IMG/VR virus record: IMGVR_UViG_3300029822_001172
Span: 1 to 22,155 of that record
Origin: a virus
Reading direction: 5' to 3' (one strand)
DNA: 22,155 bases
Shown here: positions 4,788 to 22,155 of the stretch, piece by piece
Layout of the letters: every line of letters starts with the position of its first letter
Position numbering within the stretch: the first letter of the stretch is position 1
Notes under the pieces: model-generated
Databases searched by the model: none
Told to the model about the DNA's origin: nothing
Seen by the model: only the letters and a program-made list of their open reading frames with translations
Made by a program: the position numbers and the translations under genes

Positions 4788-4802
4788 ATTTCCACCCTAT
4801 CA

Positions 4803-5195: not shown

Positions 5196-5196
5196 C

Positions 5197-5793: not shown

Positions 5794-5806
5794 TTTCCAG
5801 AGCTCC

Positions 5807-6193: not shown

Positions 6194-6309
6194 ACTAAGA
6201 CCTCCTCTTTTCCATCTGAATGTATCCTGATATGCTCGGTTATGTTGCCCTCGCGGTCCCTAGATTTGATATCAATGACCGTAAGGGACGCTGTTTCTGT
6301 TGCTGTCAA
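6181..6309 (-). CDS. 42-aa ORF (MTATETASLTVIDIKSRDREGNITEHIRIHSDGKEEVLVSRR)
   Basis: The TTG start overlaps the stop of the upstream gene (TTGA) and the ORF overlaps the downstream gene. It resembles the missing N-terminus of that downstream protein family. Confidence 0.5.
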   Translation of the reverse strand: MTATETASLTVIDIKSRDREGNITEHIRIHSDGKEEVLVSRR

Positions 6310-6653
6310 TGTTGATCGACCTTTGAAAATTTTATATTGTATACGAATTTTCCGGATCCCCGGACAACTTCCTTGATTCCACCAACCCCCGAAATATAAC
6401 AGTCTGGAAAACTTTCACCTTCTATAACCAGAGTGCCGAATGTGCCGATGGCGTCCGCTAGATTGGAGATCTCGGTATAATCCTCTGTATAGCAGTCGAA
6501 AGAGCGGGGGAAATCTCGTTTTTTGTTGCTTATAGCAGCGAAAAAATCGCCGTTATAAAGCTGCACTTCCTTCGCTGTTACCGTGAAATTTTTTTCAGTG
6601 TCTTGATAAGCAGTTACCGGAAGCCCTGCGAAAGTCACTGATAAAAAGCTCAT
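6306..6653 (-). CDS. Putative distal tail (Dit-like) protein
   Basis: 115 aa immediately after the tape measure with ATGA overlap; beta-rich; assignment mainly positional. Confidence 0.6.
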   Translation of the reverse strand: MSFLSVTFAGLPVTAYQDTEKNFTVTAKEVQLYNGDFFAAISNKKRDFPRSFDCYTEDYTEISNLADAIGTFGTLVIEGESFPDCYISGVGGIKEVVRGSGKFVYNIKFSKVDQH

Positions 6654-9703: not shown

Positions 9704-9737
9704 TTTTCAACCTAGATTTTATAGGAACGTTTTTTGA

Positions 9738-10024
9738 TTACCTAGAAACTTTCCATGCACCGTTCTCGTTTTTCCCTTCTGGATGGGCCTCTTTGAATTT
9801 CTCCAGTCCCGAAACACCGCTGGATTTCCCAGCCTCCGCGGGATCTTTATCCTGCATGATTTCTCCGAGGACTCCCCAGAACACCTGAGCCTTCAACTTC
9901 CTAGCTTCCCAACCCTTCCGATAGTACATTATGATTTGATCCAGGGTCATTTCGTCTAGAAGCCTTTCAGGTGTAGCCCAGGCGTACATCTCACCGAGTT
10001 GAGAGATTATCTCCCAAATCGTCA
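9738..10024 (-). CDS. Tail assembly chaperone C-terminal part (gpT-like), reached by -1 frameshift
   Basis: The track ORF (ATG 9989) stays open upstream to the slippery site: LTIWEIISQLGEMYAWATPERLLDEMTLDQII. Confidence 0.8.
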
Positions 10025-10031
10025 GTTTTTT
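9999..10031 (-). other. Programmed -1 ribosomal frameshift signal: A AAA AAC plus downstream hairpin
   Basis: Heptamer at 10031-10025 in the correct phase, a 7-nt spacer, then an 8-bp stem TTGGGAGA-taa-TCTCTCAA (10017-9999, one G-U pair). Confidence 0.85.
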
Positions 10032-10393
10032 CCGTCTTCACCCCCAGCTTTTCCCTCATCATTCAGCTGAGTTATCCCTGAGAAAACGAACTTTACAAAC
10101 TTCATTAGATCGGCAATGGACAGGTTGTCAAGAAGCCAGTCCTTGGTGATTTTCTCGTTTGATTTCTCGCAAATTATCCCAACGATGTCAATGATGTCCT
10201 CCAGTACTGACATGTCAAGTGATTCCTCAGATGCGTTTTCAAACTTCTTGATGTCGTGCTTTTTCGAGAACGCAATGAACTTCAATGAGACTCTAGCCGG
10301 GATTTTGGAAATATCTACGGTTTCGCCAAGCAGTACGGCGGTTCTTTTCGGGGGTTCAAGAATTTCGAAATTTGTAAGTAGATCTTCAGTCAA
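10022..10393 (-). CDS. Tail assembly chaperone (gpG-like)
   Basis: 123 aa, TTG start, between major tail protein and tape measure; ends GGA AAA AAC TGA. Confidence 0.85.
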   Translation of the reverse strand: MTEDLLTNFEILEPPKRTAVLLGETVDISKIPARVSLKFIAFSKKHDIKKFENASEESLDMSVLEDIIDIVGIICEKSNEKITKDWLLDNLSIADLMKFVKFVFSGITQLNDEGKAGGEDGKN

Positions 10394-10395
10394 TT

Positions 10396-11196
10396 TTAGA
10401 CCCCCTGCTCATCAACAATCATAAATAGCTGGTCGCCCGCGGTCCTGGTAGTGTCACATATACCCTTGAGTGTTATCGTGGGTTTCAATGGCTCGTCGCC
10501 GTCGTCTGCTGGCAGGGTTAGCTCTATCCCTCCCTGGTTTTTGGCTGCATAGACAGTGATCTCGAATTTCTTCCCGGCTGCATTGGTATTTGTGAGCCTG
10601 GCCACTCTAGCCGATATGGTATTTTTCCCACCGCTTGACAGGGTAACGGCTGTATATGGAGTGTAAGAATAGCTTACCTTTATTCCGTCACCGTCCGTAA
10701 TTACTGTGCTTCCTGCAACCCTGGCAATGCAGGTATAGCCCTCTTCATCGACTGCAATAACATAATCTGTATTCCTGGCGGCTTCATTATCTTCAGAGTC
10801 AGTGACTACAATAGAAGCTGCCTCGGAGCCGTCGCCGTTCTTGTGGGCAAGCCTGACAAAATTAGTATCGGTCAGTGTATGGGTTTCTGCGCTTACAGGA
10901 GTTGCCGAACCTTCAACGCTGCCGAGGGTATCAATCCCGCCTCGGATCAGGTTGAGATTTGTGAGGTTGACTTCCCACATCTCGAATTCTACAGTTGCGC
11001 TGTGGTCCTTTACACCGACTATGATTTCAGGGGCATTGTCGGGTTTCAGGGTTACGGGTGTGTATTCCTCGGTAAATTTTATGCCGGTTGCGAGTCCCAG
11101 GTTTACTAGGGACGCTTCAGATTCTCCGACTTCGATTTTTGCCGAACCGAAGCGGATAGTCTCAGAATGTTGTGTGCTTGTCTGGTATGTTGTCAA
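10396..11196 (-). CDS. Major tail (tube) protein
   Basis: 266 aa, TTG start with AGGTGA RBS; IRFGSAKIEVG...NLGLATGIKF N-terminus; canonical position. Confidence 0.85.
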   Translation of the reverse strand: MTTYQTSTQHSETIRFGSAKIEVGESEASLVNLGLATGIKFTEEYTPVTLKPDNAPEIIVGVKDHSATVEFEMWEVNLTNLNLIRGGIDTLGSVEGSATPVSAETHTLTDTNFVRLAHKNGDGSEAASIVVTDSEDNEAARNTDYVIAVDEEGYTCIARVAGSTVITDGDGIKVSYSYTPYTAVTLSSGGKNTISARVARLTNTNAAGKKFEITVYAAKNQGGIELTLPADDGDEPLKPTITLKGICDTTRTAGDQLFMIVDEQGV

Positions 11197-11200
11197 GTGT

Positions 11201-11569
11201 TCACCTTCTGTAAATTATCTTAAAGTCATAGGGGATATGATAAACTCCTGTTTCGGAGTCGTAAGAATCGAAAGAAGATAGTGGAACGATTATCTCTATG
11301 TTATGACCGTTTATAGTGCCGGAATACCCATTTAAAGCATTTTCAACGGCTGCTTTAATTTGTTTCACTTGTGAATAGTCATTAGAAAAAATATCAATCT
11401 GAAAGCGGGGGGTACCCGTAATTCGATTGAATGGTTCGGATACCTGGAAATATGAAAGAGCCGGGAGAGTACAATCTAGGGGAAGCTGAACAGGGTATAT
11501 TCGAGTACCTACAAGAGCGTATAGGGTTGGATCTGCAAGCAGGATAGTTCGTAATGCTTCCTCTATCAT
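11201..11569 (-). CDS. Tail terminator / DUF3168-like protein
   Basis: MIEEALRTILLAD..L.ALVGTRIYP...LP and RFQIDIFS motifs. Confidence 0.85.
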   Translation of the reverse strand: MIEEALRTILLADPTLYALVGTRIYPVQLPLDCTLPALSYFQVSEPFNRITGTPRFQIDIFSNDYSQVKQIKAAVENALNGYSGTINGHNIEIIVPLSSFDSYDSETGVYHIPYDFKIIYRR

Positions 11570-11946
11570 TTGTACCGTCCGATAAGCTGGTTAAGTCGCG
11601 TTTCAAATGCTGCCTGTATCTCGTTTGTGTTTTCATCGAGTGCAGGTCTTAAATACGGTTGTGCTCTCTGATATCTAGTTCCAAATTCGACATGCGGCGC
11701 GTATTCAATGTCAGTACCAACTTGACTTTCGATTCTCCCAGGCGTTTTATTCTGTTTCATTTCTCTGAGTGACCGCCTGAGAGTGCCGGTATCAACAGGA
11801 CACCTTATTTTCGCATCCCTTTCAACTACTGCTGCGCCTGCGCTTACTGCCTGTGATAAGATAATCTGAAGTTCTTTATCAAGTGCCTTAAATTTCGATT
11901 GGAGTTCTTTAACTCCCTCAATTTTCACCGTGAACATATCGGACAT
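11566..11946 (-). CDS. HK97 gp10-like neck/tail-completion protein
   Basis: AKIRCPVDTGTLRRS, YAPHVEFGT and QPYLRPA motifs. Probable start is ATG 11946; the track start of 11973 overlaps the small upstream ORF. Confidence 0.85.
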   Translation of the reverse strand: MSDMFTVKIEGVKELQSKFKALDKELQIILSQAVSAGAAVVERDAKIRCPVDTGTLRRSLREMKQNKTPGRIESQVGTDIEYAPHVEFGTRYQRAQPYLRPALDENTNEIQAAFETRLNQLIGRYK

Positions 11947-11947
11947 A

Positions 11948-12097
11948 TCAGATTTTCCCGAAAAGCAGCTCAATCTCCCCTTCTTTCCTGTCGTTCCGCT
12001 CCTGGGTTATCAGTTCTTTCAGGTCATTTTTTAGACAGTCTCTATTTTTCTCACATTCCCCTCGGTATACCAGTGTAGGGGGGTGTGTAGGGGCCAT
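11948..12097 (-). CDS. 49-aa ORF (MAPTHPPTLVYRGECEKNRDCLKNDLKELITQERNDRKEGEIELLFGKI)
   Basis: Manual translation. The ATG lies 1 nt after the upstream TAA, and its TGA lies 1 nt before the next ATG, so it fills the gap exactly. Confidence 0.55.
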   Translation of the reverse strand: MAPTHPPTLVYRGECEKNRDCLKNDLKELITQERNDRKEGEIELLFGKI

Positions 12098-12098
12098 G

Positions 12099-12695
12099 TT
12101 ACCGCTTCTCTACCGCCTTCAGGCTTGCCTCGATATGATCTATACTACCACTGAAAAAATTTTCATATATTGAAACGTTGGTAACTTCATAAGTATGATT
12201 ATATCCGGATTCTGTGCTTGTTATGTGGTCACCTCCCATGACTACAGCGTCAGCCGGGAGAAATACAATAGTCTCGGATGCCACGTATTTTCCAGACTCA
12301 TAATAGGGAAGTGAGCCGCCAGTTTGTCTTGTGTTTGCGAATTTGCAAGCGTATTCCGTGCTGGCCGTTGTAGTTTGTGGGGTTCCTACTCCGTTTGTGT
12401 GGGGGATCGCAGGACCGGAGGCCGTAGCTCTGCCTGTGCCAGTGTCACTAATTGATTCACTTTCGAAGGTTCCTGAAACATTAGATAAGATTAGATACCC
12501 GGCTGCATTTCCAGATGACCAGGAGCCGGAGGACAGCGTAATACTTTTTATCGTACTTCTAGCTTCGGAGGTTGCACCTGTCAGGACGGACCCGACAGTA
12601 AAAACAGCAGTCCCCGAGGTGAAATTGAGTTTCTGATCCTGGGATGTGCTGATTACCTGGCAGGTATGCAACATTCCGAAGTTAAGAGAGTTCAT
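12099..12695 (-). CDS. Putative head-closure protein with an inserted Ser/Thr/Gly-rich beta domain
   Basis: Position after the adaptor. The C-terminal IVFLPAD...GGDHIT...YEV...DHIEASLK pattern is head-closure-like. Confidence 0.6.
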   Translation of the reverse strand: MNSLNFGMLHTCQVISTSQDQKLNFTSGTAVFTVGSVLTGATSEARSTIKSITLSSGSWSSGNAAGYLILSNVSGTFESESISDTGTGRATASGPAIPHTNGVGTPQTTTASTEYACKFANTRQTGGSLPYYESGKYVASETIVFLPADAVVMGGDHITSTESGYNHTYEVTNVSIYENFFSGSIDHIEASLKAVEKR

Positions 12696-13078
12696 AAAGT
12701 ATTGTTCACCGTCCCGAATCCGACGCGCCCGAATGGTATTGAAACATTGAGGACTTTCACGGAGTCCTTATATTTCTGAATCAGCTCAGCCGCTTTTTCA
12801 TCGTATGCTTTGATATCTGCGTCTATTGTGTTCTGTTGCTGGCTGTTTCCCTGCTGGATGCTTGCCGCCATCTCTCCGGTAGTTTTCATTTTCCGAAGAG
12901 TGGCAGCCCATGCCGCGTTTTTTCCGGCGAGAATTAGCAGAGGGTTGCTAGAAGCTGTTACCTCGGCTAGTGCCAGGACCTCGGCAGATACCTCGGTGAT
13001 AATATCAAGGATATCTGAATCCGTGAGGGTTGAGCTGTAGACCCTGGCGCGAACTTCAGCAACAGAACACAAGACCAT
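12692..13078 (-). CDS. Putative head-tail adaptor (gp6/gp15-like)
   Basis: 128 aa helical protein directly after the MCP; LCSVAEVRARV...LTDSDILDII N-terminus. Confidence 0.65.
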   Translation of the reverse strand: MVLCSVAEVRARVYSSTLTDSDILDIITEVSAEVLALAEVTASSNPLLILAGKNAAWAATLRKMKTTGEMAASIQQGNSQQQNTIDADIKAYDEKAAELIQKYKDSVKVLNVSIPFGRVGFGTVNNTL

Positions 13079-13087
13079 TCAAAGACC

Positions 13088-13963
13088 TCAGATAACGGAT
13101 ATCTTGCAGATTGCCTTATCCTGCTTGATCCTGAGAATTCCCGCGCTGTAAACTCTTCCTGTCAGGTCTCCCGTGTCTGGATGCTCTGAATCGATACCAT
13201 GCTCAACGGTATAATTCTGAGTTAGATAGAAATCGAAATATGCTTTCCCTACCGATGGAGTCGGTAGAACGAGTCCGTCCGAATCTGGGAGGACTGTATC
13301 AGGTACGGCATAGATTGCACCGCCGTTCAGCATACTCTCGACTATCGGTTTTTCAAGCTGTCCAGAAGTGCTGTGAACGCTACTCTCAAGCTCTCCGTAA
13401 TTCGTGAAGCCGAGAACCATGTTTAGGGGCATGTTGTATGCGGGAACTCCGTAGCCTGCCATAGTCGTTTTTGCTCCGGCAAGTGCTTTTATTGCGTTGC
13501 CCCATGTGCCGAAGTCGTTTGACGTGGAATAGTCGGAACCCGCGCCCTGATACAGCCCTAGGATATCGTAGTTTGTACCGTCGTTTTTCACGCCCTGGAT
13601 GATTGCCATATCCTCGGCGGTAACAGTCTGATAGCCTGCAGAAAGCGCGGCGGCATTGTCGATATCTACACCACCGACTTTCCAGCTCTCGTACATTCTG
13701 CGAGGAACTTTGTAATCTTTCCAGTACACAGGGATTTTGTTGTTTGTCAGGGCGACGTCAATCATGTCCTCGTTTCCAGAAGTGAAACCATAGGACACAT
13801 AACCTTCGGACATTTCGGTAATTTTGCCCCATTCGACTGAGGAAATACCGAATCCCTGCGCGGGAGTCACGTAAACGAGCTTACGCCCGATGTTAACTTG
13901 TCTCAGAGGGTCAACAAGCTGAGATTCAATTTTCTTTGAAAAAGTTGCAAGTGCATTTGTCAT
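13088..13963 (-). CDS. HK97-fold major capsid protein, family-1 encapsulin (Linocin M18)-like
   Basis: 291 aa with AGGAGG RBS. GRKLVYV...G, IPVYWKDY...AEDMAIIQG and LEKPIVESMLNGGAIYAVP motifs match the encapsulin pattern; context is viral. Confidence 0.88.
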   Translation of the reverse strand: MTNALATFSKKIESQLVDPLRQVNIGRKLVYVTPAQGFGISSVEWGKITEMSEGYVSYGFTSGNEDMIDVALTNNKIPVYWKDYKVPRRMYESWKVGGVDIDNAAALSAGYQTVTAEDMAIIQGVKNDGTNYDILGLYQGAGSDYSTSNDFGTWGNAIKALAGAKTTMAGYGVPAYNMPLNMVLGFTNYGELESSVHSTSGQLEKPIVESMLNGGAIYAVPDTVLPDSDGLVLPTPSVGKAYFDFYLTQNYTVEHGIDSEHPDTGDLTGRVYSAGILRIKQDKAICKISVI

Positions 13964-13975
13964 TGTTTTTCCTCC

Positions 13976-14518
13976 TTAGATCAGGCTCAGGACCATCAGG
14001 TCAGCAGATTCGTCTATGGTTGTCACGGTTTCCATTGCAATTCCTACAACAATACCGCCTATCCCTACTGAACCTGTAATCGTTGGTGTTGTGGATACTA
14101 CCGCACTTGCAGTCGCGGAACCGGTGGTACATGCAGCAGCGAGGGCTTCTGAGACTTCGCCGTTTGCGGCTGCCACAAGCCTGTCTCCCTTTGCGATTGT
14201 CTGATTATCTGCGAGTTTCGCAACGACAACAAAACCGCCGCCATACAGGACAGGAGCCTGAGCATACTGAGCATAGATCGTGTCGACATCTGTAGGCATG
14301 TATCCAGCGTTTGTTACCTGTTCGTATCCAGCCCATCCGATACAATTTTCGCCCGCACCACAAACAACGATATCATTATCATTAGTACCTTTTTTTACAA
14401 GTCTGCCCGGGTAAACATTGGTTGCAGTCTCGACATTGAGTTCCTGTACGAGTGGTTCTCCTGCTACGACTATTTTGTTAGTCGGTTTCCTGAGTCCGAG
14501 ATTAGCCATTATTCCCAC
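13976..14518 (-). CDS. Capsid decoration/cement protein (DUF2190-like)
   Basis: 180 aa between scaffold and MCP; PGRLVKKG...IGWA...IAKGDRLVAAANGEV...VGIAME pattern. Confidence 0.7.
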   Translation of the reverse strand: MGIMANLGLRKPTNKIVVAGEPLVQELNVETATNVYPGRLVKKGTNDNDIVVCGAGENCIGWAGYEQVTNAGYMPTDVDTIYAQYAQAPVLYGGGFVVVAKLADNQTIAKGDRLVAAANGEVSEALAAACTTGSATASAVVSTTPTITGSVGIGGIVVGIAMETVTTIDESADLMVLSLI

Positions 14519-15504
14519 GCTCCGGTTTTAGGATTATATGCGCCTGTGCAGGCTTTGTTTTCGGTCTGTACGTTTCCGGCTGGATACTGTACGCCAGAAG
14601 CTCCGAGTTTTACACCACCCAGATCTTCAGCGAGTTTGTTAAGATCGGCTGCGGTAAGTGTCTTAAAATCTTCGGCTTTTGTCTCAATGCCTAGTTTTTC
14701 CCTGGCACTTGCGAAGGCTGAGAATGCTGTTTCTCTTTCGTTTGCCTTCTGAACTTCCTGCTTATATTCTTCCAGAGCAGAAGCGACAAGTTTCTGAGCT
14801 TCTTCGAGAGTCAGAGAAGAGGCTTTTCCCTTTTCAAGAGAAGCAACGAGAGTATTCTTTTCCTCAAGTTTTCCCTTCAGATCTTCGATAGAAGCTGTCA
14901 GTTCTCCGACTTTTGCCTCAAGCTCTGGGACGGATGCGGCCACCGGCTTGAGTTCTTCAATAATTTTATCTTTTTCTTCAAGCTCAACTTTGAGCTTTTC
15001 GAGTTCTTCTGTTATGGTTTCACCTTCTTCTTGTGATGATGCGATTAACGTAAATTGTGAAAGCGTCCTAAAACGAGAATTCCCATTTTCTGATGCTGTA
15101 ATCTCCCAAGCCGCTTGACTCCACGCGGGATTCCTCACAAGAGTCATAGACCGCGCTTCTATTCCAGTTGCCCATCCTTCAGAATCAATGTTAGAAGCCT
15201 GGACGTAAGTAGACCAGTTTTTTTCCCATGTCCCATCTGCGATTTTCTGAGCGGCTATTGAATCAGTTATCCGCCCTTTTGCTCTGATAACATCACCTTC
15301 ACGCCAAGCGGCAACAATGCGCCCAACTTCTGCGCGGGGATCTTCGGAAAAATCGCAATCGTGTGGATCATCACGCGGGCATATTCGGATAACAGAGGCT
15401 TTTAAGGAGTTGATAGCGTTATCTGCTTCTGATGCGGGTATGCCCCACCCGTTAGCATTTTTTTGATTGAGAGGGAAAGCGAGTCCCTCGATAAAAAGAG
15501 TCAT
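14509..15504 (-). CDS. Prohead protease-scaffold fusion
   Basis: N-terminal domain with IEGLAFP, H...VGRI and SMTLVRNPAW motifs, followed by a long acidic coiled coil. Confidence 0.8.
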   Translation of the reverse strand: MTLFIEGLAFPLNQKNANGWGIPASEADNAINSLKASVIRICPRDDPHDCDFSEDPRAEVGRIVAAWREGDVIRAKGRITDSIAAQKIADGTWEKNWSTYVQASNIDSEGWATGIEARSMTLVRNPAWSQAAWEITASENGNSRFRTLSQFTLIASSQEEGETITEELEKLKVELEEKDKIIEELKPVAASVPELEAKVGELTASIEDLKGKLEEKNTLVASLEKGKASSLTLEEAQKLVASALEEYKQEVQKANERETAFSAFASAREKLGIETKAEDFKTLTAADLNKLAEDLGGVKLGASGVQYPAGNVQTENKACTGAYNPKTGAWE

Positions 15505-15558
15505 TTGTAAATGTTAACGCTGTGAACTGATATATATTTATCTATAAGAATATTGTAG
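15505..15558 (-). promoter_or_regulatory. Putative late promoter of the morphogenesis operon (leaderless or very short leader)
   Basis: TAAATATATA at 15540-15531, 26 nt upstream of the protease ATG; no SD sequence before the ATG. Confidence 0.55.
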
Positions 15559-15660
15559 AAAATAAAAAAATGTAGAATTAAAAAACGGCTTATTGTAAGG
15601 CTCTGTATTGAGTTAAAAATAGAAGGTTAATGTATTTAGACCTGAGAAAAAAGATAATTG
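15555..15660 (-). terminator. Oligo-U tracts ending the leftward accessory transcripts
   Basis: Several T5-T7 runs on the minus strand in a 170-bp AT-rich gap. Confidence 0.4.
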
Positions 15661-15671
15661 ATTATATGAGC

Positions 15672-15908
15672 TTAGAAAAACCGATTAAATGAGGCCTCTT
15701 TTCTCTCAATTATCTTGCATTGTGATTTTGGTATCCAATGTAATTCTCCAGACTTTTTCAGCGCAATTTGAAAAGCTTTTGTAGTCGAACGAAGGATAAC
15801 TACGCCGCTTTTGAACTGGTTGAATATTTCTTTCTCTTTTGCTAGCCAGTCCGGTATTTCGAGTTCGTGACGTGGATATTCTTGAGATGGGATTGTGGAG
15901 AGTTTCAT
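15672..15908 (-). CDS. Hypothetical protein (HWIPKSQC motif)
   Basis: 78 aa with ATGA overlap; the W-I-P-K-S-Q motif is common in small viral proteins. Confidence 0.65.
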   Translation of the reverse strand: MKLSTIPSQEYPRHELEIPDWLAKEKEIFNQFKSGVVILRSTTKAFQIALKKSGELHWIPKSQCKIIERKEASFNRFF

Positions 15909-16210
15909 ATTACCTCAACCCCCTTAACTTCACAAGGTGCAATAACCATAATCTTTCCCTTCATCACGACAAAAAGAGGCGAATGCTTTTCATATGAAAG
16001 ATACATCTTGCCTTCTTCTGGGATCAGATCCTTTCTAAATAGTCCGGTATCTCCCTCTTTTGTTGTTGCCTGGACAAGCCCGCCGCCGATTGGGGACAGG
16101 GATATTACATGTTCTTCTCGCGTGAGGCTGTCGTAAAATTTGAATAGGTTTTCTGGTAGTTCTTCGGGATAGTTTACTGTTAGGGTTATGTCTGGGATAT
16201 CTTTTATCAT
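15905..16210 (-). CDS. Hypothetical protein with sliding-clamp-like C-terminus
   Basis: 101 aa with CGGAG RBS; ends F-RKDLI...YLSY...SPLFVVMKGKIMVIAP. Confidence 0.6.
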   Translation of the reverse strand: MIKDIPDITLTVNYPEELPENLFKFYDSLTREEHVISLSPIGGGLVQATTKEGDTGLFRKDLIPEEGKMYLSYEKHSPLFVVMKGKIMVIAPCEVKGVEVI

Positions 16211-16244
16211 AGTTTGTGGCTCCGTGATTTTTTATGATGGCTGT

Positions 16245-16447
16245 TTATGCCGAGTGTATAGCTTGCATTACGTCACCGAGTTTGACATCTGCTCCACATG
16301 TTTCGCATATGTGATGTTTTATTTCTTCGGTTACTTCTGTTTCTCCGTCCACTGTTTTTATATGGCGAGTTCCACATTTACAAGGTTAAAAATGGGAATC
16401 TCCGTCATTTATGGCGGAGAGGCTTCAACTAATTTATAAGTAGTCAT
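16245..16447 (-). pseudogene. Small Zn-ribbon gene interrupted by a 41-47 bp insertion
   Basis: The ATG overlaps the upstream TGA. As written it reads MTTYKLVEASPP-stop. Removing the insertion restores MTTYKL(EPC/AC/G)KCGTRHIK...CETCGADVKLGDVMQAIHSA. Confidence 0.75.
16382..16428 (+). mobile_element. Miniature IS200/IS605 right-end-like element
   Basis: GGGAATCTCCGTCAT-tt-ATGGCGGAGAGGCTTCAA: a 10-bp hairpin (16399-16420) followed by terminal TCAA. It breaks a reading frame. The left boundary is 16382, 16385 or 16388. Confidence 0.65.
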
Positions 16448-16626
16448 TCGTCCCATTCCTGATGTTTACATTTTTTACAGTGCCAGCCATATGGCACTTT
16501 TCCTTTTTTCCATTCTTCTGCTGTTTCATAAGAGCGTTTAAGATCCTCTCCACACTTTGGACAAATTGGACGTTCAGTTTTACCTCTTCCCTTAAAACGT
16601 GGACGGGGTTTAGTTTCAGAGGTCAT
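16444..16626 (-). CDS. Zn-ribbon protein, paralog of 18035-18244
   Basis: Basic N-terminus followed by PICPKCGE..R.Y...GWHCKKC. Confidence 0.75.
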   Translation of the reverse strand: MTSETKPRPRFKGRGKTERPICPKCGEDLKRSYETAEEWKKGKVPYGWHCKKCKHQEWDE

Positions 16627-16636
16627 TTTTCAGACC

Positions 16637-17062
16637 TCAGAACCATCCTTCTGCATATTCTTGTATTTCTTCATCAGTCAACGTTAGCAGTTTTTCAGAT
16701 GACCCCCATTTATCCCACGCCCAATGTACAATCTCGGTTAATTTGGTGTCGTAAGTTTCATCGGGCGCAGCTTCGTATATTGCATCGATGATTTTATTAA
16801 ACAGAGAGGCTGCGGTTTCTTCATCTCCCCCCCAATCTCCAACGGTTTCAGATGCTGCATAGACTGATTTTGGATTAAACATCTCTTTATAATTTATTAC
16901 CTCTTCAATTTGGTTATCGATGAATTGTTTTTTCCTCTTTTCAAAATCCTCGCCATGCTGTAAATGTTGAATTATGTATTCATCAAGCCATTCTTCTATT
17001 TCTTCCATTGTTTCAAATGTTTCAGAATTTGTATTCGGACCAAAATCTACTCGGTATGGCAT
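16637..17062 (-). CDS. Highly acidic hypothetical protein
   Basis: 141 aa with 34 D/E versus 11 K/R (manual count). Confidence 0.75.
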   Translation of the reverse strand: MPYRVDFGPNTNSETFETMEEIEEWLDEYIIQHLQHGEDFEKRKKQFIDNQIEEVINYKEMFNPKSVYAASETVGDWGGDEETAASLFNKIIDAIYEAAPDETYDTKLTEIVHWAWDKWGSSEKLLTLTDEEIQEYAEGWF

Positions 17063-17173
17063 TTATTTCATCTCCAGAAATTCAAACTGTTCGAGCATTG
17101 CAGGAATATCATCCTGAGTGTGGTGAATTTTCTTCATATCTTGTGGGGTCAGTTGGTAGATTTTTCTTTCCAT
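17063..17173 (-). CDS. 36-aa ORF (MERKIYQLTPQDMKKIHHTQDDIPAMLEQFEFLEMK)
   Basis: AGGAGG RBS at 17186-17181; first gene after promoter copy 1; its TAA abuts the next ATG. Confidence 0.65.
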   Translation of the reverse strand: MERKIYQLTPQDMKKIHHTQDDIPAMLEQFEFLEMK

Positions 17174-17180
17174 CTCTTTT

Positions 17181-17256
17181 CCTCCTATCTTAGCTCAGGG
17201 CACACCGCCCTACTACAATATACTATAAGGCGTTCCAAGTATATATAACTAACTAC
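17181..17256 (-). promoter_or_regulatory. Repeated promoter-hairpin-RBS element, copy 1
   Basis: TTATATATAC...GCCTTATAGTATATTGTAGT-AGGGC-ggtgt-GCCCT-GAGCTAAGAT-AGGAGG. The 47 bp at 17187-17233 are identical to 18774-18820. Confidence 0.85.
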
Positions 17257-17418
17257 GCGGCGTTCATTAAAGTAATACAATAATAAAAACACTAACAAGA
17301 GCCTGAACGATTCTAAGCCATTTAGAGACGTTTTTAAGGAGTGCCCGATGGAATTCTACGGCAATAAGGGAGAAAATGGAACAGCGGGCCTGAGGTTAAG
17401 CCTGTATATTGCTCTGTG

Positions 17419-17456
17419 AGAAAAAAGAAAAAGTAAGAAAAAATAATGAAATTAGT
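17419..17456 (-). terminator. Oligo-U terminator of the cassette 2 transcript
   Basis: TTATTTTTTCTTACTTTTTCTTTTTTCT on the minus strand, just after ORF 17476-17823. Confidence 0.55.
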
Positions 17457-17475
17457 TAATAACCGTCAACGATTT

Positions 17476-17823
17476 TTATACCTTGATTTCGTCTTCGTGA
17501 TCTTTCAACCACTTCTCAAAATGTGGATATTTCTCACATTTTTCAATATCATTAGCTGTGTTAAATATCCAACCACAAACCACACATTCAAATCCCTGCA
17601 TATCATCCATTGCGTCGGGTTTAGTGTTGATTACCCGTTTAGAGATTTCCCCCCCAAAGGTTATCATTTGTGTTTTTTGAGATAGGTATTCTTTCCAGTA
17701 TTGCAAGTGCCCACCGCATATCGGGCATTTTATCTCTACGCCTTCAACTCTCATTTTTTCATATCCAGGTTGTTTATTTCTCCTTACGCATTCCCTCGAT
17801 CTGTTTGTCGGTAACCTATTCAT
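17476..17823 (-). CDS. Zn-ribbon protein
   Basis: 115 aa with CPICG...CVVCG. Confidence 0.75.
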   Translation of the reverse strand: MNRLPTNRSRECVRRNKQPGYEKMRVEGVEIKCPICGGHLQYWKEYLSQKTQMITFGGEISKRVINTKPDAMDDMQGFECVVCGWIFNTANDIEKCEKYPHFEKWLKDHEDEIKV

Positions 17824-17944
17824 TGTTTAGAGCTGGTCTTCGGTTTTGTGTAAATATAGTTTCAATTGCTCTCTTAAGATGCTCGTTGTTTATTAGTTCA
17901 ATTTCATCATTTTCCAGTTTCTCAAAATCTTCTTTTGTTACCAT
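17816..17944 (-). CDS. 42-aa ORF (MVTKEDFEKLENDEIELINNEHLKRAIETIFTQNRRPALNNE)
   Basis: CGGAG RBS; first gene after promoter copy 2; overlaps the next ATG. Confidence 0.6.
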   Translation of the reverse strand: MVTKEDFEKLENDEIELINNEHLKRAIETIFTQNRRPALNNE

Positions 17945-17949
17945 TTAGG

Positions 17950-18017
17950 TTATCTCCGTGTATTAGCTTAGGTTGTACAATATACTATAAGGCGTTCAAA
18001 GTATATATAATTAACTA
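17950..18017 (-). promoter_or_regulatory. Repeated promoter element, copy 2 (hairpin lost)
   Basis: TTATATATAC...ACGCCTTATAGTATATTGTA, followed by CAACCTAAGCTAA instead of the hairpin. Confidence 0.8.
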
Positions 18018-18140
18018 TTTGGTATACCATATAGTTACTCTAATAAAACAAAGTCCTTAATCAAATAATCACAAGTTGAGGAAGGGCAGGACCACCCCGA
18101 CCCTGTATAAGCTCTATTTTTAGTTCCTGCTCTTGTATAT
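17976..18140. repeat. 165-bp direct repeat, copy A (partner 18801-18965)
   Basis: Ungapped alignment at offset 825 with 16 mismatches in 165 bp (~90% identity, manual count). Confidence 0.95.
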
Positions 18141-18244
18141 GCCCTAATACAAATTTCTCCACATTTAGGGCAAATTGGTTTTGGGATTGCCTGTTTACCA
18201 TTTGGCTTAATCTGTCCCTGTCTTCGTTTTTTTCCAGTGTTCAT
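18035..18244 (-). CDS. Zn-ribbon protein with basic N-terminus
   Basis: 69 aa; PICPKCGE..RAY...GWSCPSSTC. Confidence 0.75.
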   Translation of the reverse strand: MNTGKKRRQGQIKPNGKQAIPKPICPKCGEICIRAYTRAGTKNRAYTGSGWSCPSSTCDYLIKDFVLLE

Positions 18245-18757
18245 TTATACCAAGCCAACCGTAGGAGCTACCATATACACACAGTCTGAATATTCAACGA
18301 TCAACGGAATATCTTTACCTCCCTTATATGATAGTGGATCACCAAGGCCCCCAATAACCTCCAAGGCATACCACAGAGGATATAAATATTTCATATCATC
18401 AGTGTCCATATCCTCCTTTTCAATCGGTTTAAAAAACACACCTTTAATATCAAACCTCTTATACAAATTTTCAACGTTGTCCGCCTTTACGATTGTGCAC
18501 AGCTTGTTTTTTAGAGTGAAAACTCCACGTTCTGACCATTCGATATCAGGAACAATATATTTATAAATGTCATCCAAGTCATTTTCAATTTCTTTTTTAT
18601 ATTCGTTCCATGCAATATCGCACGCACCACAGTTGAAACCTTTATTACATATACACGGGTTGTCTAGGTCTACTTCGCATTTATCACCATATTCATAATC
18701 TCTATATGTTGGCGGGAATATCATTTTCTCTTTTTGTTCTTGTGTCAACGTTTCCAT
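18245..18757 (-). CDS. Cys-cluster plus PCNA/sliding-clamp-like domain protein
   Basis: 170 aa with GGAGTGA RBS; C-x7-C-x-C-x4-C-x2-C cluster; C-terminus YPLWYALEVI...GKDIPLIVEYSDCVYMVAP. Confidence 0.65.
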   Translation of the reverse strand: METLTQEQKEKMIFPPTYRDYEYGDKCEVDLDNPCICNKGFNCGACDIAWNEYKKEIENDLDDIYKYIVPDIEWSERGVFTLKNKLCTIVKADNVENLYKRFDIKGVFFKPIEKEDMDTDDMKYLYPLWYALEVIGGLGDPLSYKGGKDIPLIVEYSDCVYMVAPTVGLV

Positions 18758-18761
18758 TCAT

Positions 18762-18843
18762 TTCACTCCTTACATCTTAGCTCAGGGCACACCGCCCTAC
18801 TACAATATACTATAAGGCGTCCCATGTATATATAATTAACTAT
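18762..18843 (-). promoter_or_regulatory. Repeated promoter-hairpin-RBS element, copy 3
   Basis: TATA, TATAGTATATTGTAG, hairpin AGGGC-ggtgt-GCCCT (18784-18798) and RBS. Confidence 0.85.
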
Positions 18844-18965
18844 TTAGCATACCATATAGTTACTCTAATAAAACAAAGTCCTTAATTATATAATCACAAG
18901 TCTCAGATGGGCACGCCCAACCAGACCCTGTATAAGCTCTATTTTTAGTTCCTGCTCTTGTATAT
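18801..18965. repeat. 165-bp direct repeat, copy B (partner 17976-18140)
   Basis: See copy A. Confidence 0.95.
18860..18965 (-). pseudogene. 5'-truncated copy of the Zn-ribbon gene 18035-18244
   Basis: Reads YTRAGTKNRAYTGSGWACPSETCDYIIKDFVLLE-stop. An in-frame TAA lies upstream and there is no start codon. Confidence 0.8.
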
Positions 18966-19073
18966 ACAATTAGTTCCTTAGTGGAAAAGTGGGGTTAATA
19001 TTTCTTTTTTTGTACTATTTTTTGATGAAATTTGGCTTTATTTTAATACAATTCTTACATTTGTACGGATTAT

Positions 19074-19163
19074 ACGAAAAGTACTTATATGAATAGTGCG
19101 TATAGTATATTGTAGTAAGGGCATAAGGCCCTGCGAGAAAATAAGAAAAGGTGAAAAGAAATG
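19074..19163 (+). promoter_or_regulatory. Repeated promoter-hairpin-RBS element, copy 4 (divergent)
   Basis: GAAAAGTACTTATATG (BRE/TATA)...TATAGTATATTGTAGTA-AGGGC-ataag-GCCCT-G...AGGTGA-AAAGAA-ATG. Confidence 0.85.
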
Positions 19164-19403
19164 ATATATGGAAAAATTTTGAACCTAACTCAACATGTAG
19201 CAACCCCTGAACAGGTTGAAGCCGGAGTTTTTGAACCTTCTGCTGAAGACAAGAAGATGATACAGAAACTCCTTACATTTGATGAAATTGCCGAAACTGA
19301 ATCATGGCACATGTACCAAAGGGAAAGTATTGACCAGGTACAGCCTGATGGTTCGGTCAAAAAGACCGCAGTATTCAGGCACTGCGGATTTGTGGAGGTC
19401 TGA
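19161..19403 (+). CDS. Csx20-like (CARF-related ring nuclease) homolog with the central segment missing
   Basis: N-terminal [13 protein letters not shown] and C-terminal [25 protein letters not shown] match my recollection of the Csx20 termini (H-x2-T-x2-Q; R-x-S-x-E...G-x-V-x-K-x2-VF-x-H-x2-F). Only 80 aa. Confidence 0.6.
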
Positions 19404-19405
19404 AA

Positions 19406-20269
19406 ATGACCTCAATAAAAGAACTAAATAGAGACATCGAGGCAAATGCTGTAGAACTTGATTCCGCGCATAGATATGAAAACGGGTATGACTACTCAGA
19501 TGAGGAGTTTTACACTCTTCAGGAAAAACAGAGAAAACTAATTGAAAAAGTTAGAAAAGCACTTGAACCAAAATACGAATTTCCGTACTATGCCCTCATA
19601 AGAGTGCATTCTAAGAGAGATGGAACGTTTCATATTCCTGCCCCAATGTTCAATGGGATGACAAGAAGATCGAAATGGGCAGGGAGTCTCCCAATCGCAG
19701 GAGATAAAAGAGATGGTGAATATTACGAGTGCCCCTTCTGCGGAGAAAAGAGTTTCTATTCGGGTGTATGTGAAGAGTGTAGAAGAGATTTTGAAGTGTG
19801 GGAAAAAGACGGTTACGATGGCCAGTGGGTTGACGGCCCACTTCCGCTTGAGTATAGAAACCATGAAGCTATGAAGAATGCAGCGAAAGATGAACTGCTC
19901 AGAAGAATTGATACAGGTGTTCCCGATCTCGGAATATACTCAGCCGAAATAGTTCTACATGTGGCGTGGGGCGCAGAATGGGAACCTTCGCCTTTCTTGA
20001 AGTGTTCAGACTACTCAGCACAGTGGGCACTCGACAGGATCGAAAAAGAGATCCGAAGTCATGAGAAACTTAAAAAATATGAAGAATATCAAGAAATGAT
20101 CCGTAATTATACTCTCGAAGATGGAGTGCCGCTTGATTATCTCGAAGGTGACGTTATCACAGTTGAAGGCACAAATGAACTCCGCAGGCATGTCAATGGT
20201 GTTTGGCAGCATAAACATCCTGAAGATGGGTATGATTACTGGCATCCTATGGCACGGGTCCACAAATAA
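19406..20269 (+). CDS. Hypothetical protein with a central Zn ribbon
   Basis: 287 aa; CPFCG-x7-CEEC; GGAGGT RBS. Confidence 0.75.
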
Positions 20270-20288
20270 GAAAAGGTGAAAAGAAATG
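20264..20288 (+). repeat. 25-bp exact direct repeat of the RBS-ATG segment at 19139-19163
   Basis: AAATAAGAAAAGGTGAAAAGAAATG occurs at both sites. Confidence 0.95.
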
Positions 20289-20525
20289 CATGACAAGAAA
20301 AAAGTAAAATTCGCGGATGTCCATCCGACAACCCGCGAGAAGTTTAAAATTTTCGTGAGTAAATTAAAACTCGATGGACGCACCATAAATGGGCATCGAG
20401 TAAAAACTCTCGAAGATGGCATGTTATATGCTATGATGCAGGCGGAAAGAGTGCCTGCGCTTGAAGAAGAAAACATGGAATTGAAAGAGAAGATCAAGGA
20501 ATGTGAGTTTCCTGGCTCAGGTTAA
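20286..20525 (+). CDS. Small basic protein with C-terminal coiled coil (possible DNA-binding regulator)
   Basis: 79 aa; Lys-rich N-terminus; LEEENMELKEKIKE heptads. Confidence 0.65.
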   Translation: MHDKKKVKFADVHPTTREKFKIFVSKLKLDGRTINGHRVKTLEDGMLYAMMQAERVPALEEENMELKEKIKECEFPGSG

Positions 20526-20798: not shown

Positions 20799-20917
20799 TA
20801 TGTATATATCTCATTTCCTAAGGAGACCAGTATCAGAAGCTTATAATATTCCTTCGGAAAAAATCATAGCACTTAAATACTTCCTAAGCATATTATGTAT
20901 ATCGTTTCCTAAGGAGA
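20799..20917. promoter_or_regulatory. Mini-ORB-like repeats upstream of cdc6 (putative origin or autoregulatory operators)
   Basis: TTTCCTAAGGAGA at 20814 and 20905, each preceded by TATGTATAT; TTCCTTCGGAA at 20849; TTCCTAAGCA at 20881. These fit the TCC-N3-GGA core (one mismatch at 20881). Confidence 0.6.
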
Positions 20918-20925
20918 ATTAAGAC

Positions 20926-22155
20926 ATGACACCAAAAATATCTTTAACAGAAATAATCGCATCTGATAACCGGCTGTTTATGAACAAGCAAGTAGTAAAA
21001 CCTAATTATACACTCAGAGGGATTGATGATATCCTCCATAGAGATGATGAAATAAGAACATATTACGAGTATCTAAAAGATATCTTTAGTGGAGTGTCGC
21101 CAAGTAACATTTTCATCTACGGAAAGCCTGGACTTGGGAAAACTCTAATTACAAAACTCGTTTTTGAAGAAATTAAAAGAGAAGCAGAAGTAAGAGGAAT
21201 AGAACTCTGTATTATAAATATCAACTGTGACGAACTCAGAACAGAACACTCTATTTTACAGAGACTTGTGCGGGAAATCCCTTCAGATGAGCCAAGAAGA
21301 GTTATAGGGAATTCAACCTCTAAGCATAGTGAACACCTGAAGTATTTGATAAATCACTACTCAGGAATAATAATAATCATTCTCGATGAACTTGATAAGG
21401 CCGTAAATCCTGAAATGATCAACAAGATAATAAGAACCGAATCGGAAGCTTCCGGGCAGTTTCCGACTATTGTAGGAATTACAAACGATCTAGGATTAAG
21501 AGATAGGTTCCCGCCACACTTAAAAAGTGTTCTCTGCGAAAATGGATTAATTATCAACCCTTACAACGCTGACCAATTAGCTGATATCCTGAGGGCAAGG
21601 GCAGAAATAGCATTTAAGAAGGATTCCTTAGACGAAATGGTAATTCCTCTATGTGCTGCTTATGCCGCTCAGGACTATGGAGATGTTAGACGAGCTATAG
21701 ACCTTTTAAGAGTTGCCGGAGAAATAGCAGAATCAAGAAGCGGAAAACAGTTAATAGAACAGGATGTTAGAGACGCTTACAACAAGTTAGAGATTGATAG
21801 AGTCATTGAAGTAATTAAAACACTTCCTACACAGTCTAAGGCCGCTCTGCTAGCATGTATATACGTTTATGATTCTCCTAAGGAAAATACCATGAGTAAT
21901 ATATACACTGTATATAGTGGGCTGTGTGATGCTATGGAGATTGATGTATTAACTCAGAGAAGGATAACCGACCTGCTTGCAGAATTAAACCAACTTGGAA
22001 TAATAGAAGGGATTAACGAGTTTAAAGGCAGGTATGGAAGGAAGAAAGTAATTACAAAGATAACTTCAAAAGAACATGCTTTAGAGATTCTTTTTCAGGA
22101 TTATAGAATTAGTACAATTAAGAACATTCCCGCTAGTGCGTTTTTACGGTTTTAA
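20926..22155 (+). CDS. cdc6: Orc1/Cdc6 replication initiator
   Basis: Walker A GKPGLGKT, Walker B IIIILDELD, YNADQLADIL.RA, GDVRRAIDLL, and winged-helix LTQRRITDLLAELNQLGII. Confidence 0.96.
   Translation: MTPKISLTEIIASDNRLFMNKQVVKPNYTLRGIDDILHRDDEIRTYYEYLKDIFSGVSPSNIFIYGKPGLGKTLITKLVFEEIKREAEVRGIELCIININCDELRTEHSILQRLVREIPSDEPRRVIGNSTSKHSEHLKYLINHYSGIIIIILDELDKAVNPEMINKIIRTESEASGQFPTIVGITNDLGLRDRFPPHLKSVLCENGLIINPYNADQLADILRARAEIAFKKDSLDEMVIPLCAAYAAQDYGDVRRAIDLLRVAGEIAESRSGKQLIEQDVRDAYNKLEIDRVIEVIKTLPTQSKAALLACIYVYDSPKENTMSNIYTVYSGLCDAMEIDVLTQRRITDLLAELNQLGIIEGINEFKGRYGRKKVITKITSKEHALEILFQDYRISTIKNIPASAFLRF

Follow-up and report, generated by a model that had tools for sequence, protein, structure and literature searches.

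A repeated, probable promoter-leader element at the junctions of exchanged gene units in tailed viruses of Methanosarcinaceae-type methanogens

In T4-type phages, the ORFans of hyperplastic regions are preceded by PeSL cassettes, which combine a repeated strong-promoter-like motif with a hairpin, a Shine-Dalgarno (SD) sequence and a start codon and which recombine homologously without a dedicated recombinase (PMC2839356, PMC4122927). Among archaeal tailed viruses, HF2 and other haloferacalesviruses carry class I and class II intergenic repeats composed of a BRE, a TATA box and a conserved block at the start site; in the class I repeats transcription starts at a G within a conserved 19-bp motif, and mutations in this motif abolish activity (PMC8707807). 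For the Halogranum virus HGTV-1, a TATA-like region with an inverted repeat lies before most left-arm ORFs (Sencilo et al. 2013, as relayed in PMC3950731), and according to the same account an explicit parallel with PeSLs was drawn in 2013, roles in transcription and genome shuffling being proposed for the motif. The proven promoters of HF2 and the HGTV-1 motif, as relayed there, run counter to the original prediction for the locus described below, which had held that no archaeal equivalent was described. The expression signals and genome plasticity of methanogen viruses are barely known.

Here we analysed a 22,155-nt stretch of virus DNA (IMG/VR record IMGVR_UViG_3300029822_001172, about 33% of a genome; henceforth referred to as the window), in which a 14-mer, TATAGTATATTGTA (henceforth the box), occurs in four exact copies, three leftward and one rightward as originally predicted. 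With up to two mismatches allowed 0.18 copies would be expected, and none of 100 shuffled windows reached four. The kind of element is known, but the present sequence family is new. We think it probable that it represents a promoter-leader module of a Methanosarcinaceae-type tailed-virus clade that has been multiplied, and exchanged at the box, in the manner of PeSL cassettes. Such a module would carry the PeSL principle over to methanogen viruses, with another role for the hairpin; so far the principle has been demonstrated in T4-type phages, with no more than a suggestion for a single halovirus. The features of the locus are as follows.

16637 to 17173, minus strand: cargo of copy 1, the ORFans ORF36 (truncated relative to a 115-aa ORF of contig L089) and ORF141
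17174 to 17250, minus strand: element copy 1, with TATA at 17240-17248, box at 17214-17227, leader hairpin at 17197-17211 and SD at 17181-17186, heading ORF36 and ORF141
17251 to 17475, minus strand: oligo-T terminator-like tract after ORF115 and a non-coding spacer of ~170 nt
17476 to 17944, minus strand: cargo of copy 2, ORF42 and ORF115 (CxxC Zn-ribbon-like, below Pfam cut-offs)
17945 to 18012, minus strand: element copy 2, with TATA at 18002-18010, box at 17976-17989 and no hairpin, heading ORF42 and ORF115
17976 to 18140: direct repeat arm A (165 nt), comprising box and TATA of copy 2 and the 3' end of ORF69
18035 to 18757, minus strand: cargo of copy 3, ORF170 (an ORFan) and ORF69 (a CxxC Zn ribbon)
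18758 to 18837, minus strand: element copy 3, with TATA at 18827-18835, box at 18801-18814 and hairpin at 18784-18798, heading ORF170 and ORF69
18801 to 18965: direct repeat arm B (165 nt), comprising box and TATA of copy 3 and an ORF69-like 3' remnant
18860 to 18964, minus strand: start-less remnant, the last 34 codons of an ORF69 paralogue (from translation; stop upstream, start codon absent)
19074 to 19160, plus strand: element copy 4, with a weak TATA at 19082-19091, box at 19101-19114, hairpin at 19118-19132 (loop ATAAG) and SD GGTG, heading ORF80, ORF287 and ORF79
19139 to 19163, plus strand: 25-nt leader/SD/ATG string, with an exact second copy at 20264-20288, before ORF79
19161 to 20525, plus strand: cargo of copy 4, ORF80 (Csx20-like), ORF287 (a Zn-ribbon protein conserved in relatives) and ORF79

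The order expected for the element, namely TATA, box over the predicted start site, ribosome-binding site (RBS) and small ORF, holds for all four copies: an A-rich BRE and TATA box precede the box by ~11 nt, and the RBS and ATG follow it after 31-46 nt. Copies 1 and 3 share the 47-bp identical run noted before, which lies within a 76-nt stretch of 92% identity, and the stem AGGGC/GCCCT (AGGGC-N5-GCCCT, with GGTGT or ATAAG as the loop) is found in copies 1, 3 and 4, that is, in three of four as had been stated. The leader of copy 2 diverges straight after the box and folds at only -0.4 kcal/mol, and the box is the only stretch common to all copies. Copy 3 is chimeric, its upstream side resembling copy 2 and its downstream side copy 1. 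An independent assembly, L097, matches window positions 16380-18080, which take in copy 1, at 99.9%; copy 2 is also present in L061, L095 and L097, and the box and hairpin of copy 4 recur in G001, G002, L027 and L065 before different first genes.

Across the window, IMG/VR and metagenome contigs we found 54 distinct element copies heading 31 cargo families, in line with the expectation of variable cargo behind a constant element. The box together with a following GTA (17 nt) is nearly invariant in these copies, while TATA flank, leader and cargo vary, although the scans were baited with the box and its conservation is thus partly a matter of ascertainment. Copies recovered without this bait do vary, by a 1-nt insertion (G003, L089) or by one or two substitutions (G001, L015, L086, L088). 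TATA spacing is constant, and SD and ATG lie 17-69 nt downstream of the box in all 54 copies. Conservation is concentrated in 17 nt around the start site, whereas that of PeSLs is spread over ~100 bp, and a genome carries 1-4 copies as against ~50 PeSLs. Since complete relatives carry only one or two (the complete genome G001 has two elements; G002 has one), the element, judged by these genomes, is no general array. It does, like PeSLs, sit in a variable region before ORFans, as seen on comparing the window with G003.

A promoter role of the element is likely from this geometry, and the original reading of it as an archaeal promoter stands in so far as sequence alone can speak. Together with the GTA, the box would cover about -11 to +6, which places the predicted start of transcription at the G of TTG or no more than 2 nt away. 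The promoter is archaeal (BRE/TATA), as judged by sequence only, in contrast to the sigma-70 promoter of PeSLs, and sigma-70-like (bacterial-type) promoters showed no excess over shuffles. The HF2 repeats are the best experimental analogue of the box, likened to it by architecture, not by sequence; they belong to another host lineage, no leader hairpin has been described for them, and their places in the genome are conserved within the genus, with no report of exchange at them (PMC8707807), whereas the positions of the present element differ among relatives. The HGTV-1 motif, as presented in PMC3950731, differs in sequence, in its haloarchaeal host and in its many more copies, and was described from one genome without comparative junctions. 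The box was not found at the window's late promoter or at its cdc6 promoter. A small-RNA gene or a tRNA-like att site, which we also considered, was rejected, tRNA and Rfam matches both being absent. A scan of GTDB representatives with a 20-mer returned a single chance match, in a Treponema MAG, so these genomes contain no provirus copy and the 20-mer is not a common host sequence. Neither a megablast search with the whole window nor a tblastn search with the capsid protein gave a match among GenBank phages, and Cdc6 matched haloviruses only (22-28% identity).

To judge the leader we relied on the folding of individual sequences. A 5'-terminal hairpin (≤ -4.5 kcal/mol) formed in 22 of the 38 distinct leaders, the other 16 folding at ~0, and the sense strand folded more stably than the antisense strand in 21 cases against none. 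The constant 5' GUAGUAAGG finds a partner in at least ten different 3' arms, in several cases from nucleotide 1 on. Because the 3' arms differ by lineage and stability consistently favours the sense strand, the hairpin appears to be a feature of the RNA, and the folds support selection on it as an RNA structure, as originally proposed; it is nevertheless dispensable, since it is lacking in copy 2 of the window and in 16 of the 38 leaders, and its register differs by lineage. Single hairpins gained only modestly over shuffles (z -1.7 to -2.2). When 16 leaders with a hairpin were submitted to RNAalifold, no consensus structure emerged in a common register, because loops and arms differ; MAFFT had placed these leaders without gaps despite their differing loop lengths and registers. 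Being part of the transcribed leader, the hairpin comes after the predicted start; it is optional and lacks a U-run. In PeSLs, by contrast, the hairpin is placed before the promoter or overlaps it and serves to terminate or attenuate upstream transcription. An origin from REP/RAYT-like sequences or IS200/IS605 ends, to which the GTAG-plus-palindrome appearance and a TnpA gene in G003 had pointed, was rejected: the hairpin sequences are lineage-specific, pair with the transcript 5' end and do not resemble the hairpin beside the G003 tnpA.

Comparison of relatives showed that gene content and gene order between elements are not the same from virus to virus, and that near-identical contigs become unrelated exactly at the box. 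The outcome named beforehand as a refutation, identical content and order in related viruses, was not observed. L073 and L055 agree at 136 of 138 positions as far as the box and are unrelated past it; L089, L073 and the window have three unrelated upstream flanks but match at 100% from a point 2 nt ahead of the box onward. Copy 1 of the window has the upstream side of one L073 element (L073-Pa) and the downstream side of another (L073-Pb), with the crossover within 26 nt of identity and the ORF69 unit missing. Likewise, L070 carries a gene between two elements where L027 has a single element between 100% identical flanks, and L079 differs from L071 in the same way at 81% flank similarity. Two elements flanking a unit in one virus and one chimeric element in another is also the pattern of PeSLs, where RB49 ORF192 compared with phi1 (PMC2839356, PMC4122927) corresponds to L073 compared with the window and to L070 compared with L027. 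At copy 3, L061 is 98% identical to the window as far as ~18845 and unrelated past that point, and in G003, the nearest relative (92-99% identical in virion genes), unrelated genes replace window positions 15585-18978. Element copy pairs with at least one similar flank were discordant in 26 cases and concordant in 6, as against 64 and 102 for random shared 17-mers of the same contigs (odds ratio 6.9); the discordant pairs in this comparison do not represent independent events, and most control anchors fall in conserved genes. Overall, the element is likely to be a recombination point, and the original notion of a recombination handle agrees with these junctions.

The same data bear on whether recombination need be invoked at all. 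If the box were solely an operator or initiator under selection in orthologous promoters, the junctions would reflect faster divergence of the flanks. The box resembles two tandem heptads plus GTA, as would befit the target of a DNA-binding protein, the palindrome (12-15-bp arms) around the TATA in several relatives' lineages, though in none of the window copies, is typical of repressor sites, and the HF2 repeats are promoters with positions kept within a genus (PMC8707807). However, the main junctions are 97-100% identical over at least 100 nt on one side and unalignable on the other, which is impossible by point mutation, and the same cargo occurs at different loci and in opposite orientation in relatives that are 96-99% identical over it; copy number, neighbours and orientation of the elements differ as well. 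A purely regulatory explanation is thus unlikely, and a regulatory role of the box agrees with recombination too.

That the contigs were mis-joined or collapsed at the repeat by short-read assemblers, so that the shuffling is not real, is very unlikely in our judgement. Every relative is a metagenomic contig, many are of small size, and the box marks one end of several (L019, L056, L083, L096 and L098), indicating that the repeat disturbs assembly; two contigs end exactly there. Yet at a troublesome repeat assemblers break contigs and do not join them, the junction identities of 26-47 nt are shorter than the k119 and k127 in two contig names, and the variant contigs differ by 2-10% in their flanks. 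Moreover, the same arrangements come from unrelated projects: that of L089 from four samples, that of L055 and L073 from two, and that of the window in L097 and L061.

Recombination at the box could in principle be site-specific, with the box as core site for a dedicated recombinase or transposase in an integron-like or IS200/IS605-linked cassette system. In integrons, cassettes are promoterless and carry attC at their 3' end, and IntI acts at attI beside a single Pc promoter. The present units resemble such cassettes in being short single-gene units between a recurring sequence at which they are gained and lost, but here each has its own promoter on its 5' side and a linked integrase is absent. 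No attC-like site or recurring 3' palindrome was found at the window elements, the window showed no recombinase gene, and PF00589 had no match in the window, which is only a third of a genome, or in the complete G001 with its two elements, so the integron-like array of the original prediction was not borne out. Junctions at both edges of one short invariant sequence would fit a dedicated enzyme, as would the IS200-type TnpA gene in the variable region of G003 and the tyrosine recombinases encoded in G002 and G003; these integrases, though, lie 13-14 kb from the element, homologous exchange likewise gives junctions at the edges of identity tracts, and the promoter signals of the element stand at a fixed distance from the start codon. 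Other junctions lie elsewhere, at ~18965, ~17490, 17082 and 15585 in the window, and as in-frame fusions shortly after the start of the first gene, by a few codons. We therefore hold a site-specific system to be quite improbable. For classical homologous recombination, 17-26 nt of identity is a short tract.

Most remote of all is the idea that the copies are ORB-like replication-origin repeats, for which copies 3 and 4, inverted around an AT-rich 286-bp spacer near cdc6/orc1, would be the model. The 20-nt arms are indeed inverted 286 nt apart, an Orc1/Cdc6 gene lies 1.8 kb away, and the equivalent region of G003 has five 24-nt iteron-like repeats; elsewhere, however, the copies are mostly tandem and co-directional at a fixed distance from SD and ATG, G002 has a single copy, and placement relative to cdc6 varies.

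Under the explanation that we favour, the element would be a class-specific, probably immediate-early, promoter-leader module, whose A-rich BRE and TATA would recruit host TBP, TFB and RNA polymerase. The predicted transcript would start with GUAGUA, and in about half of the copies its 5' end would fold into a short hairpin ahead of the SD, which most likely stabilises or otherwise modulates the mRNA. In the lineage of the window the module would have multiplied to four copies, each heading 1-3 ORFan genes, and recombination inside the box, presumably homologous, would have deleted, inserted, inverted and re-paired units in related viruses; it may also have an adaptive role. The ~20-nt promoter-leader signature is searchable and would mark one expression class in the clade, with examples of unit exchange at the nucleotide level, and may serve as a cheap bait for early genes, one of them a candidate viral ring nuclease.

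This candidate is ORF80, the sole hint of the counter-defence cargo that had been proposed. Its full-length relatives match the Csx20 profile NF040559 below the cut-off; one of them, P0001, does so over positions 3-122 of 124 with an E value of 6.6e-7, at 29.7 bits against a cut-off of 70, and ORF80 itself lacks ~60 central residues, the Csx20 core. The Csx20-like model reached a pLDDT of 85, and fold searches with it returned generic Rossmann-like folds only (SAVED/CARF Z 4.5-5.1); Foldseek and VIA-align gave no specific match, nor did a PDB profile search. The other cargo consists of ORFans, with no Pfam or PHROG family beyond weak Zn-ribbon matches. The single-sequence AlphaFold model of ORF170 was unusable (pLDDT 44), and an Atlas search with ORF170 and ORF141 gave no match. 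We regard as doubtful the further proposition that the box is the recognition site of a dedicated virus or host factor (a transcription or recombination protein), that the units are actively exchangeable within the viral population, for example as excised circles, and that they preferentially carry first-wave anti-defence genes such as a Csx20-type ring nuclease; if true, the box would be a bait for unknown anti-defence genes of methanogen viruses.

A 165-nt direct repeat (90% identity), absent from the original prediction, links copies 2 and 3; on the upstream side of the promoter it reaches into the 3' end of ORF69, the gene of the 69-aa Zn ribbon. Its arm B is 96.5% identical to the 3' end of the ORF69 of L055, and the start-less remnant of the ORF69 paralogue is, by its sequence, the apparent footprint of an earlier ORF69-promoter junction. 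The ~170-nt spacer, for which no Rfam match was found, accompanies the upstream side of copy 1 in L055 and L073, and the second copy of the 25-nt leader/SD/ATG string is a feature of the window only.

The 14-mer TATAGTATATTGTA (henceforth referred to as the ‘box’) occurs exactly four times in the window, three times leftward and once rightward, where 0.18 copies with up to two mismatches would be expected and none of 100 shuffles reached four. Each of the four is preceded, at a distance of ~11-12 nt, by a TATA box and its A-rich BRE, and is followed 31-46 nt further on by an SD and ATG. Copies 1, 3 and 4 contain the stem AGGGC/GCCCT around one of two loops, a stem that copy 2 lacks; copies 1 and 3 have 47 identical bp in common. 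The original prediction had reported the four copies, the stem in three of them with differing loops and the 47 shared bp, and in these respects it was confirmed, the copy number by comparison with expectation and shuffles.

Element copies and neighbouring features in the window
1-15504, minus strand: virion genes (beta-helix (disaggregatase-related), tape-measure, tail-completion, HK97-gp10-like, HK97/encapsulin-like capsid proteins)
17174-17250, minus strand: element copy 1; cargo ORF36 and ORF141
17945-18012, minus strand: element copy 2; cargo ORF42 and ORF115
18758-18837, minus strand: element copy 3; cargo ORF170 and ORF69
19074-19160, plus strand: element copy 4; cargo ORF80, ORF287 and ORF79
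from 19161 up to the Orc1/Cdc6 gene: rightward block
19161-19403: ORF80, 80 aa, shortened, with ~60 central residues missing relative to its ~130-aa family
20926-22155: Orc1/Cdc6 gene, end of the rightward block

Copies 2 and 3 have in common a 165-nt direct repeat that reaches upstream into the 3' end of a 69-aa Zn-ribbon gene, of which the portion upstream of copy 3 is a 34-codon remnant without a start; copy 3 is thus chimeric, its upstream side being like copy 2 and its downstream side like copy 1. A 25-nt leader/SD/ATG string is also exactly duplicated, before ORF80 (19139-19163) and before ORF79 (20264-20288), the second copy being present only in the window among all fetched loci. Exchange between the two strings would delete ORF80 and ORF287.

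Further copies were collected from related viral and metagenome contigs (designated L) by scanning IMG/VR with a 17-mer and metagenome contigs with a 20-mer, and by retrieving loci via ORF287 and Cdc6 homologues. This yielded 54 distinct copies, all with the same order of BRE/TATA, ~11 variable nt, box plus GTA, a hairpin or directly the SD (GTAAGGAGG), and ATG, and with 31 cargo families behind them, so the variable cargo behind a constant element that had been anticipated from a motif scan was indeed found. The conservation of the box is partly due to ascertainment, and copies reached by other routes have a 1-nt insertion (G003, the closest relative's genome, and L089) or one to two substitutions in it. 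Two co-directional copies, spaced 300-1270 nt apart, occur in 15 contigs. A profile search of relatives' genomes detected two copies in the complete genome G001, one in G002 and a diverged one in G003, indicating that the four-copy array is an expansion in the lineage of the window. In three contigs of higher G+C content (48-52%; L014:6500-6600, L020 and L023) the exact box occurs with a GUAGU/ACUAC 5' hairpin and an SD, and an AT-rich TATA box is absent at the usual distance from the box, suggesting that in another virus group the box may act independently of an upstream TATA.

Archaeal TATA boxes are usually centred at ~-26/-27. Since the TATA box of the element is centred 15.5-17 nt ahead of the box, the predicted transcription start is the G of TTG within the box, which is a pyrimidine-purine step and places the box at ~-11 to +6. 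The box is absent from the late promoter (~15505-15570) and from the region upstream of cdc6, and thus marks one promoter class. At the start of the virion-gene block (15505-15570) a TATA box lies ~25 nt ahead of the ATG, which suggests a leaderless late transcript; the coding strand there is without the box, and the opposite strand has a loose box-like match at 15543-15557. Upstream of the Orc1/Cdc6 gene, two copies (20803-20826 and 20894-20917) of a distinct 24-nt motif ending in TCCTAAGGAGA form a separate repeated signal without the box. In several related lineages a palindrome is centred exactly on the TATA box of the element, its arms (12-15 bp) differing in sequence from one lineage to the next (e.g. 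CCCTAAAAG.. versus TGATCTAAAAC..).

TATA-centred palindromes in relatives
G001 (L045): 12010-12045 and 12735-12768
G002 (L047): 13512-13545
L065, L068, L069, L071 and L079: also present

No such palindrome was detected in the four copies of the window (p 0.56 or higher). Its role in the relatives may be that of a binding site for a dimeric repressor or, in read-through RNA, of a hairpin.

Taken alone, the hairpins of the window have only a modest advantage over shuffles (z -1.7 to -2.2), and a common-register structure sought with RNAalifold was not found. Across the family, leader folding is bimodal: among 38 distinct leaders, 16 have a folding energy of ~0 and 22 one of -4.5 kcal/mol or lower. 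For 21 of these 22 the sense strand gives the more stable structure of the two strands, and for none does the antisense strand, which implies G-U pairs and hence structure at the RNA level. The constant 5' GUAGUAAGG pairs with at least ten different 3' arms, and several hairpins start at nucleotide 1 of the predicted transcript; pairing that includes the first transcript nucleotides supports the predicted start site. Even behind orthologous cargo, hairpins differ or are present in some relatives and missing in others. We therefore read the hairpin as an optional 5'-terminal leader structure, apparently under selection for pairing, which, by analogy, could protect the 5' end or affect translation or promoter escape.

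The proposal that the element is a recombination handle is supported, at the sequence level, by junctions at the box in relatives and by flank discordance (one flank of the box similar, the other not) above that of control anchors. L073 and L055, which are 98% identical over 1470 nt, match at 136 of 138 positions as far as the end of the box plus GTA; past this point they are unrelated, with both leaders and cargo different. Window copy 1 combines the upstream flank of the first L073 element with the leader and cargo of the second, the crossover lying within a 26-nt identity that contains the box, and the ORF69 unit that separates the two elements in L073 is missing; this topology is the same as that of RB49 ORF192 versus phi1, a case of the promoter-early stem-loop (PeSL) cassettes of T4-type phages. 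Starting 2 nt ahead of the box, the sequences of the window, L089 and L073 agree at every position for >100 nt, yet their three upstream flanks are unrelated. In a different lineage, a gene between two elements in one contig is replaced by one element in another (L070 versus L027, flanks 100% identical; L079 versus L071, flank similarity ~0.8). Whole units have also moved: the copy 3-to-ORF115 unit lies downstream of and co-directional with cdc6 in L081 and L061 (98% identity), and leftward, away from cdc6, in the arm adjoining the virion genes in the window, and the block headed by copy 1 is inverted relative to L089, where ORF79 and the ORF58 region flank it. Where at least one flank of a copy pair was similar, 26 pairs were discordant and 6 concordant, compared to 64 and 102 for random shared 17-mers in the same contigs (odds ratio 6.9, p ~1e-5, for pairs that are non-independent and controls that lie mostly in conserved genes).

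Breakpoints at ~18965, ~17490, 17082 and 15585 lie away from the element, as do in-frame fusions in which just 7-12 codons from the start of the Csx20-like gene remain, which indicates that illegitimate events contribute too. At the junction near 17082 (window 17063-17100), where there is no element, 643 nt of L089 (9256-9898) are absent from the window, so that the first gene behind copy 1 has 36 codons instead of 115 and a 123-aa gene is lost. Another mosaic junction among small Zn-ribbon genes is seen in L031:3027-3221, where a stretch from the N-terminal part of ORF69 (91% over 23 aa) and one from inside ORF115 (77% over 22 aa) are fused in a single ORF. In G003 (L032:7635-8083 and 9051-9320), rightward genes, including an IS200/IS605-type Y1 transposase gene, stand in place of the leftward early arm and are followed, just upstream of the copy-4 homologue, by five copies of a 24-nt AT-rich repeat, possibly origin iterons.

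The reality of the ARRANGEMENTS was also examined. Window 16380-18080, with copies 2 and 1, has a 99.9% match in L097, which comes from an unrelated project, and L061 spans copies 3 and 2 at 98%; the L089 arrangement was found in four samples and that of L055/L073 in two. Two independent contigs (L096:1-16 and L098:1-16), one at ~3300x coverage, have their first base exactly 2 nt ahead of the box, at the position where upstream contexts of the window type and of the L089 type diverge, showing that assemblers break at this edge and do not mis-join. These contexts probably co-exist in one community.

Overall, the element is well documented through comparison of sequences, and its probable mechanism matches that of PeSL cassettes, namely modular shuffling mediated by a repeated element. 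However, the PeSL hairpin is a terminator or attenuator, whereas the hairpin here is a leader element, and the promoter type also differs. The view that no archaeal equivalent had been described does not hold: the TATA-plus-inverted-repeat motif of HGTV-1 has been likened to PeSLs (PMC3950731), and the class I repeats of HF2 are experimentally proven promoters that start transcription at a G within a conserved 19-bp motif and lose their activity when this motif is mutated (PMC8707807). By analogy, the HF2 repeats are the best counterpart of the box, although they keep their positions within a genus. The description of the array as integron-like is contradicted by the element lying at the 5' side of its unit and carrying the promoter, and by the absence of an attC-like site. 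Neither an integrase nor another recombinase was found in the window, nor a tyrosine recombinase in G001 despite its two elements. In G002 and G003, 13-14 kb separate the element from the tyrosine recombinase genes.

Counter-defence had been proposed for the cargo as a whole. What stands is a match of full-length ORF80 relatives (~130 aa) to the NCBIfam model CAS_Csx20 over its whole length (E 6.6e-7, below the curated cut-off), Csx20 being a confirmed cA4 ring nuclease; the remaining cargo gave no family assignment. A precomputed table tags the same ~130-aa family as PF27247 (MJ1673), and its fold model is confident (pLDDT 85), with unspecific structure searches. The sequences thus give a hint of counter-defence for one family and not for an array-wide property.

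The source of the window is a tailed archaeal virus, represented by a 22-kb fragment that is ~33% complete and classed as a provirus by IMG/VR; the window covers this record in full. No close isolate, and no close provirus in GTDB representatives, was found. The nearest cellular homologues of its Cdc6 are from Methanosarcina (57%) and from Methanolobus and Methanomethylovorans (42-43%), which together with the disaggregatase domain supports the Methanosarcinaceae-type host assumed in the original prediction. A further Cdc6, 75% identical to that of the window, is encoded by L093, a contig that looks cellular (MtrA, cation ATPases, an integrase fragment and an IS240 transposase) and has no element. 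This Cdc6 may be a copy of the viral initiator carried by a host or an integrated element.
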